64,000 bases of DNA from a virus (Duplodnaviria; Caudoviricetes), in IMG/VR virus record IMGVR_UViG_3300006752_000009. One strand, given 5' to 3'. Numbering within the stretch: position 1 is the first letter of the stretch; each line of letters opens with the position of its first letter. Below, piece after piece: positions 61,303 to 61,695 of the stretch. The position numbers were made by a program, and so were the translations under genes. The notes under the pieces were generated by a model. That model worked only from the letters and a program-made list of their open reading frames with translations. It had not been told where the DNA came from and did no database searches.

Positions 61303-61695
61303 GAGTTAAGTATATGTCCGCTGTCGGAGGTTCGTTAACATTTCCCTTCCGATGGAAGTTGCCCTCTCTACTACGCTAGTCGAAATCCACTACAGAGGAA
61401 GCGTAAATGACAGACCACTTAACTTGAGTAGTGATAGTCGCTTACTCGATTGAAACATATCGGGTAGGTAGAACCTCTACCCTTACAGGATTACTCCTGT
61501 GAGCTATACTAATACAGAAAATGTTAACGCTGTGGCTTTACGCTGATTGTGGTATGTACTTGGAGGACTTAAGCCCATCCTACCCTAAGACTCGTTCAAC
61601 TCTTATTCGTTTAAGGGGAATGGGCTTATAGTAGAATGACTAGCTTGGTCTAGGATTTCCCTAGACCATACTACTAAGGGTAGGGAAACTTACCC
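61303..61695 (+). ncRNA. candidate large structured ncRNA with long-range pseudoknots
   Basis: At least 9 helices, 11-bp and 7-bp long-range complementarities, a terminal GAAA-tetraloop hairpin; no plausible ORF; flanked by tRNA-like genes. Confidence 0.6.

Follow-up and report, generated by a model that had tools for sequence, protein, structure and literature searches.

The stretch of DNA analysed here (64,000 nt of IMG/VR record IMGVR_UViG_3300006752_000009, hereinafter the window) derives from an uncultured marine giant (jumbo) phage and encodes, among other proteins, a tail sheath, an ATP-dependent ligase and enzymes of nucleotide metabolism. An array of tRNA and tRNA-like genes spans 59.4–63.8 kb on the + strand, and a structured non-coding RNA (hereinafter the ncRNA) fills the gap between two of its members, surrounded by many degenerate-looking or otherwise odd tRNA-like genes. 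The flanking genes are those given in the initial annotation, a tRNA-like gene before the ncRNA and tRNA-Tyr after it:

61226–61297, + strand: flanking tRNA-like gene (Rfam tRNA score of 30.1 bits; cut-off, 29), which may act as a 5′ processing signal
61298–61700, + strand: the structured ncRNA, about 400 nt
61700/1–61784, + strand: flanking tRNA-Tyr(GTA), 5 nt past the terminal hairpin P10 of the ncRNA

The anticodon stem of the tRNA-like gene covaries (CTCATC/GGTGAG becoming CTTGTC/GGCAAG), its anticodon loop is of 6/8 nt, its T loop is non-canonical (TGTAAGT), and it scores as a tRNA in some relatives only.

Starting from the ligase gene, which lies 3 kb upstream of the ncRNA, we retrieved the IMG/VR contigs that carry the same region, and five more variants came from JGI and ENA metagenome contigs scanned for a conserved 26-nt pattern. 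Together these make up ten distinct homologous sequences of 383–418 nt. Every one of them belongs to a single narrow clade of uncultured jumbo phages, and they fall into group A (the window, L169, L175, L001, L003 and L173), group B (L004, L008 and L171) and the intermediate L174, that is, about three lineages in all. The ncRNA sits between the tRNA-like gene and tRNA-Tyr in all ten variants, and a YTTT directly preceding position +1 of tRNA-Tyr is likewise kept in every one of them; the complete genome of a relative (375,691 bp, rated 100% complete) holds a single copy. We also observed that the tRNA-Tyr of group B (L004:7724–7799; L008, about 13073–13150) has a shortened D arm and is 7 nt shorter; ARAGORN makes no call there and the Rfam tRNA score is 49.7 bits, as against 67 in the window, with the rest of the gene near-identical.

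Wider searches led back to the same clade. When 61100–61800 was compared by blastn with the 50,697 phage records of INPHARED, the only match was to the tRNA-Tyr; T4-like phages are among these records, so that the search also served as the sequence comparison for the RNAC and RNAD of T4. A blastn search with the flanking 7 kb found no nucleotide match in INPHARED. Exact-pattern scans of IMG/VR, checked with nhmmer, gave members of the same clade or chance matches only; a pattern scan of the GTDB genomes recovered no homologue, and a search with the neighbouring proteins returned the same contigs again and no new homologue. Nor did a covariance model of the 3′ domain match the contigs of three more distant relatives, one of them a 296-kb, 95%-complete phage with 68% identity in the ligase. 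The ncRNA family is confined to one clade within the IMG/VR, INPHARED, GTDB and JGI/ENA data searched, and because of this confinement its role may possibly be lineage-specific or dispensable.

We searched Rfam 15 with the whole window at gathering thresholds and, at E≤10, with 4.7 kb around the locus, with the 596-nt region alone and with the homologous regions of L174 and L004. These searches, which cover three divergent members, returned tRNAs and noise only: at E≤10 there was no match to GOLLD, ROOL, RNase P, group I or group II introns, tmRNA, OLE, raiA or small ribozymes, and ARAGORN found no tmRNA. The initial annotation had recognised no group I intron, RNase P or tmRNA core, and the Rfam and ARAGORN results agree with it; with no known family matched, the novelty that it had proposed stands. 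A tRNA cloverleaf (RF00005) was not found inside 61298–61699, the flanks alone scoring as tRNA. The candidates with some claim on such a locus were each set aside. The location near phage tRNA genes would fit GOLLD (RF01998), but its covariance model, like that of ROOL (RF03087), is unmatched in the window, L174 and L004. RNase P RNA (bacterial A/B and archaeal) has no match at E≤10 in the same three sequences, and inspection of the alignment by eye showed no covarying pair of RNase P boxes (GGAAAGUCC or ACAGAA...GGCUUA). For the group I intron (RF00028) there is no match, and on either side of the ncRNA lie not gene halves but a whole tRNA-like cloverleaf and a whole tRNA-Tyr; for the group II intron (RF00029 and the domain models) there is again none, and the 5′ end reads AAAUUGG where GUGYG is expected. 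The tmRNA models (RF00023 and permuted forms) are unmatched too, and the sole recurrent reading frame lacks both coding constraint and a conserved C-terminus.

On the + strand the ncRNA folds with a minimum free energy of −131.4 kcal/mol, against −104.1 ± 5.8 kcal/mol for dinucleotide shuffles (z=−4.70; 0 of 100 shuffles as good), and the fold of the − strand is weaker (z=−3.25); since G·U pair types are frequent on the + strand, we assigned the ncRNA to that strand. Covariance models were built for the 5′ domain (R2) and the 3′ domain (R1), and pairs were counted on the alignments guided by them, which delineates the following elements:

61304–61311 / 61417–61424, + strand: helix P1, closing the 5′ domain; 7 of 8 pairs changed on both sides
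61321–30 / 61346–55, + strand: hairpin P2, with the 15-nt loop L2 at 61331–45; 4 double-changed pairs
61363–67 / 61394–98, + strand: hairpin P3, with the 26-nt loop L3 that holds two long-range strands; 4 of 6 pairs double-changed
61425–61514, + strand: variable periphery of 3–4 hairpins, several of them GNRA-capped in relatives; 35–66% identity
61537–61628, + strand: conserved 3′ core, comprising the TTTACGCTGAT box, P6, P7 and P7a
61562–67 / 61578–84, + strand: P6, with the loop TAAGCC; 100% paired, 1 double change
61586–97 / 61618–28, + strand: P7; together with P7a 94% paired, with 1 double and 7 one-sided changes
61600–05 / 61612–17, + strand: P7a, counted together with P7
61646–61668, + strand: hairpin P9; 6 of 9 pairs double-changed
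61678–61695, + strand: terminal hairpin P10, with a GAAA loop; 4 of 7 pairs double-changed

Covariation is given here as raw counts set against slid controls, and the counts, drawn from ten sequences in about three lineages, are not of independent events. Of the cells of the 5′ domain 93% are paired, and both sides have changed in 15 of its 24 pairs, whereas slid controls give 40–50% paired cells and 3–5 double-changed pairs; in the 3′ domain the corresponding values are 93.5% and 12 of 39, against 1–4 double-changed pairs in the controls. Compensatory changes back helices P1, P2, P3, P6, P7, P9 and P10. The most striking case is P1, already proposed at 61304–11/61417–24 and upheld by compensatory changes in the homologues, which is swapped wholesale from AGTTAAGT/ACTTAACT in the window to CGAAGA/TCTTCG in group B and CATCGAAC/GTTCGATG in L174. 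P2 offers a further example (CGG/CCG becoming CAA/TTG in L174), with its apical pairs poorly kept, and P6 and P7/P7a are mostly invariant, with few compensations. At the level of the primary sequence, the 3′ core (61515–61628) is 75–86% identical across groups, as against 56–62% at the 4-fold sites of the ligase gene (window versus group B); the core is conserved above neutral sites.

Every complementarity listed in the initial annotation is present in the window, and most of the helices persist with compensatory changes across the ten distinct sequences. Some, however, did not survive the comparison. Only in the window and L169 are all pairs of AAGCCCAT/ATGGGCTT formed; the remaining eight sequences disrupt this helix with no compensating change, and P6 and P7 use its bases in its place. 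The TAGTAG/CTACTA pairing is real in the window, but its register slips in group B and L174. The hairpins described for 61425–61514 likewise form in the window but are lineage-specific: in relatives they are replaced, not lost, as when CTTACAGGA/TCCTGTGAG gives way to CTTACTAGA/TCTAGTAAG in L173 and to CACCCTCT/AGAGGGTG in group B. Three other complementarities of the window (GAAATCC/GGATTTC, CCTACCCTAAG/CTAAGGGTAGG and CTACCCTTA/TAAGGGTAG) are, as judged by inspecting the alignment, not kept in the relatives; a GGGTAGG/CCTACCC complementarity is also present in the window.

We sought long-range helices by an all-against-all scan for stacked, compensated column pairs, and counted their pairs on an unguided MAFFT alignment (A4). 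The contacts are the following:

61333–61343 (in L2) / 61519–61529, + strand: PK1; 11 pairs, 5 changed on both sides, 91.7% paired
61376–61381 (CTAGTC, in L3) / 61638–61643 (GACTAG), + strand: PK-A; 6 pairs, 3 double-changed, 100% paired
61387–61390 (CCAC, in L3) / 61549–61552 (GTGG), + strand: PK-B; 4 pairs, 2 double-changed, 100% paired
61401–61407 (GCGTAAA) / 61537–61543 (TTTACGC), + strand: possible PK2, complementary in the window; 6 of 7 pairs invariant

Taken together, and with PK2 included, the four long-range helices are 95.7% paired and 10 of their 28 pairs are double-changed, as opposed to 30–39% paired and 0–3 double changes in slid controls. PK1 had been put forward as a contact between the loop at 61333–43 and 61519–29; its two 11-nt strands are 100% complementary in the window and change in a compensated manner in the homologues, where GTTAAC/GTTAAC becomes GTTGAC/GTCAAC or CTGGC/GCCAG. 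Since the GTTAAC palindrome gives way to these non-palindromic pairs, the partner of the loop is the distal strand and not a second copy of the loop. The symmetric self-kissing through GTTAAC that had been thought to allow dimerisation was rejected, the palindrome being lost in L174 (GTTGAC) and group B (CTGGC). PK-A and PK-B were absent from the initial annotation and are first found here; PK-A reads TTGGTC/GACCAA in L174 and TCGGTC/GACCGA in group B, and PK-B passes from CCAC/GTGG to CTGC/GCAG. PK2 belongs to the AGCGTAAA/TTTACGCT complementarity of the window at 61400-07/61537-44; because GCGTAAA/TTTACGC is invariant, with an A·C mismatch in group B as its sole variation, covariation cannot test it. 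An alternative helix, 61314–21 with 61549–57, is compatible but weak and competes with PK-B, and we did not adopt it. The ncRNA shows no pair of identical boxes that vary together. PK1, PK-A and PK-B give the ncRNA a compact, multiply pseudoknotted fold, or equivalent contacts between copies. The claim of a large, pseudoknotted, uncatalogued ncRNA between tRNA genes is in this way supported by covariation, by the absence of an Rfam match and by the lack of coding constraint.

The surroundings of the ncRNA contain a second structured RNA:

60451–60757, + strand: upstream structured RNA, about 300 nt, flanked by a 99-nt tRNA-like gene and by a small membrane-protein ORF

Conservation is even higher here than in the ncRNA, at 81–91% identity in all relatives, and the upstream RNA folds with covariation (fifteen double-changed pairs). 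The covariance model of the 3′ core of the ncRNA matches its 3′ part (60639–60754), and the two share a GGC-UUACGCU-AU box and P6-like and P7-like hairpins; because the core model matches its 3′ third, we regard the upstream RNA as a probable distant paralogue of the 3′ core of the ncRNA. For its AAATGGTGAAG strand, no partner above chance was found. The small two-TM ORF (60742 or 60773 to 61041) and a tRNA-Asn gene (61044–61117) are present in group A and in L174-type contigs; group B lacks both, precisely at the junction of the upstream RNA with the leader that follows the tRNA-Asn in the window (L004, about 7160–7180), which makes 60773–61117 of the window an indel of a gene plus tRNA cassette relative to group B. 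Given that the upstream RNA is kept in group B, where the ORF is absent, it is not merely a leader of that ORF; in group B the upstream RNA and the ncRNA form about 1 kb of contiguous non-coding structured sequence.

Logan contigs of 151–255 nt, assembled from three RNA-seq runs of three studies, cover 61238–61565 and run across the junction of the tRNA-like gene with the ncRNA; their similarity ranges from <90% to 99%, with most <95%. The flanking ORFs lack such cover, to which we attach no weight. These metatranscriptome contigs give a weak hint of expression, as assembled contigs lack ends, strand and level, and DNA carry-over is possible; they show no evidence of cleavage or splicing junctions within the ncRNA. 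A promoter-like word, GTAACCCCTTAT, occurs 16 times at ≤2 mismatches (3.9 expected; 57133, 62047, 62177, 62453 and 12 others), mostly just upstream of genes, and is probably a phage-specific promoter. On the + strand it is found at 57133 and next at 62047 and is absent from the tRNA and ncRNA block in between (57145–62046), and around the ncRNA neither a sigma-70 promoter nor an intrinsic terminator rose above shuffle expectation. With no GTAACCCCTTAT between 57133 and 62047 and no evident intrinsic terminator, the ncRNA is likely to be co-transcribed with the tRNAs. RNase P and RNase Z can define the ends of a non-tRNA RNA when tRNAs or tRNA-like structures flank it, and by analogy with this established tRNA-processing biology, excision of the ncRNA by tRNA-processing enzymes is plausible. 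The tRNA-punctuated processing of mitochondrial transcripts and of MALAT1-mascRNA would be a likeness of this maturation only, and not of function.

We favour, with moderate confidence, the reading that the ncRNA represents an uncatalogued family of large, stable, structured RNAs that marine jumbo phages of one narrow clade encode in their tRNA arrays. It consists of two parts, a 5′ domain closed by P1 and bearing hairpins P2 and P3, and a 3′ domain made up of P6, P7/P7a, P9, P10 and an unpaired core that does not vary; L2 and L3, the loops of the 5′-domain hairpins, pair with three single-stranded segments of the 3′ part through PK1, PK-A and PK-B. We infer that it is transcribed together with the tRNAs, that host RNase Z or RNase E would cut after the tRNA-like unit, and that the RNase P cut at the 5′ end of tRNA-Tyr would set its 3′ end, with P1 and the GAAA-capped P10 presumably protecting the ends. 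As a guess at its function, during infection it might act in trans as a folded particle of RNA, like GOLLD and ROOL, and be neither an mRNA nor a tRNA nor a simple leader in cis.

The geometry of PK1, an 11-bp helix drawn from a 15-nt hairpin loop with linkers of only 2 nt on each side, bears on whether the long-range contacts lie within one molecule. Pairing in cis is sterically demanding and would be awkward unless the top of P2 opens, and one may ask if PK1, PK-A and PK-B are instead intermolecular bridges, with L2 and L3 pairing with the 3′ domain of another copy to assemble a homo-oligomer of RNA alone, as ROOL and GOLLD do. In those RNAs the tertiary pairs predicted by covariation proved to be quaternary, bridging copies in RNA nanocages (10.1101/2024.12.08.627333), and the genomic setting, a phage tRNA island, is the same. 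However, the present data fit cis and trans pairing alike, and the poorly conserved apical pairs of P2 could relieve the strain by freeing linker for a pseudoknot in cis. The GTTAAC core is not conserved, so that symmetric loop–loop kissing is excluded, and at about 400 nt the ncRNA is below the size of ROOL or GOLLD. We consider such bridges unlikely.

Under a second alternative, which we judge distinctly unlikely, the ncRNA is a cis-acting spacer or leader in the tRNA precursor; before being degraded, it would tune how tRNA-Tyr or the tRNA-like unit is processed, how stable either is or how much of it is made. Its invariable placement between these two genes in 10 of 10 variants, the YTTT before position +1 of tRNA-Tyr, the RNA contigs that span the boundary of the tRNA-like gene and the ncRNA, and the lack of a separate promoter or terminator would all be in keeping with this. 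Yet such a role needs neither a length of about 400 nt nor ten conserved helices, three long-range helices and an extended unpaired core that never varies; the ncRNA also stays conserved in group B despite the shortened D arm of its tRNA-Tyr, and the paralogous core upstream has no adjacent tRNA.

A ribozyme of a new class, whether self-cleaving, tRNA-processing or ligating, appears quite improbable. The large invariant unpaired core held by pseudoknots, the GNRA loops and the compact build are typical of large ribozymes, and many odd tRNA-like genes lie around it, but the RNase P, group I, group II and small-ribozyme models are unmatched at E≤10, no catalytic signature was recognised, and the RNA contigs carry no evidence of cleavage or splicing junctions in the ncRNA.

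It is highly improbable that the conserved core encodes a small protein (LYAD...RLRG, about 31–40 aa), with the RNA structure incidental. One + strand frame is indeed open across the core in 9 of 10 sequences, ending at the same TAG region, but its variable columns are spread 10/8/6 by codon position, with no third-position excess, and nonsynonymous codon differences outnumber synonymous ones (261 versus 77). By contrast, the ligase gene shows identities of 0.90/0.94/0.62 by codon position. A 1-nt deletion in L175 shifts the frame, and there is no conserved start codon or SD; a tag frame like the message of tmRNA was ruled out on the same lack of coding constraint. That the ncRNA is a spacer without function or what is left of decayed tRNA genes, its structure a by-product, is barely credible: the tRNA array is rich in degenerate-looking tRNA-like genes, but at least 10 helices are kept by compensatory changes, which largely refutes the idea, the core is conserved beyond neutral sites, and only the flanks score as tRNA.

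Among described RNAs, the nearest analogues of this new family of large structured phage RNAs are GOLLD and ROOL, large pseudoknotted phage RNAs found near tRNA islands (10.1101/2024.12.08.627333), and the ncRNA belongs to neither. GOLLD (RF01998) is phage- or prophage-encoded, often beside or around tRNA genes, with a marine example downstream of a tRNA (10.1101/2024.12.08.627333); like the ncRNA it is large, ornate and multiply pseudoknotted, and it combines a conserved 3′ part with a more variable 5′ part and linker (10.1101/2024.12.08.627333). It differs in its length (>800 nt as against about 400 nt) and in its helices and conserved boxes, and its model has no match at E≤10. ROOL (RF03087) occurs in phages or prophages near tRNA islands and resembles the ncRNA in its several pseudoknots and its variable linker, in having no known protein partner and in the discovery of its loop–strand contacts by covariation (10.1101/2024.12.08.627333). 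It is larger and comes from rumen or Firmicutes phages, in contrast to the marine jumbo-phage clade of the ncRNA, and its model is likewise unmatched. GOLLD forms a 14-mer RNA nanocage and ROOL an octameric one. A further parallel lies in the tRNA region of T4, which yields RNAC and RNAD (species 1 and 2), stable non-coding RNAs from a phage tRNA cluster that are matured with the tRNAs (PMC3014915). Unlike the ncRNA, these have no such long-range pseudoknots reported. Both are also much smaller, about 120–140 nt. The ncRNA is a new structured RNA family of narrow distribution, within a known kind.

Large ornate RNAs without an assigned function are rare and have repeatedly led to new biology, such as ribozymes, omega-RNAs and RNA nanocages. 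Few phage RNAs are tied to tRNA islands, and the ncRNA enlarges that set by an independent family; it lends further weight to the view that the tRNA arrays of phages are hot spots of structured RNAs yet to be described. The narrow distribution limits the immediate impact. The fold is well defined, with ten helices and three long-range contacts with compensatory support, its size suits cryo-EM, and a probable paralogue is adjacent; the ncRNA also offers a concrete construct with which to test RNA-only assemblies or tRNA-directed RNA machines as a general phage strategy. Were PK1, PK-A and PK-B quaternary bridges, the ncRNA would be a third independent class of self-assembling phage RNA-only multimer and, with the upstream paralogue and the anticodon-defective tRNA look-alikes, could be part of a phage RNA machine that acts on tRNAs or ribosomes, a conjecture that we hold decidedly unlikely.

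Two minor observations concern the rest of the window. Between tRNA-Asn and the flanking tRNA-like gene lies the leader (61118–61225, + strand, 108 nt), which starts with ACCTCCTT, resembling the 3′ end of 16S rRNA (anti-SD), and contains a hairpin (61142–48/61190–96) with two compensated pairs; its consensus structure is weak overall, and we excluded it from the element. At 20478–21752 and 35577–36758, the window encodes an adenylosuccinate-lyase-like protein and a fused OMP-decarboxylase/phosphoribosyltransferase, auxiliary nucleotide-metabolism genes of the phage.
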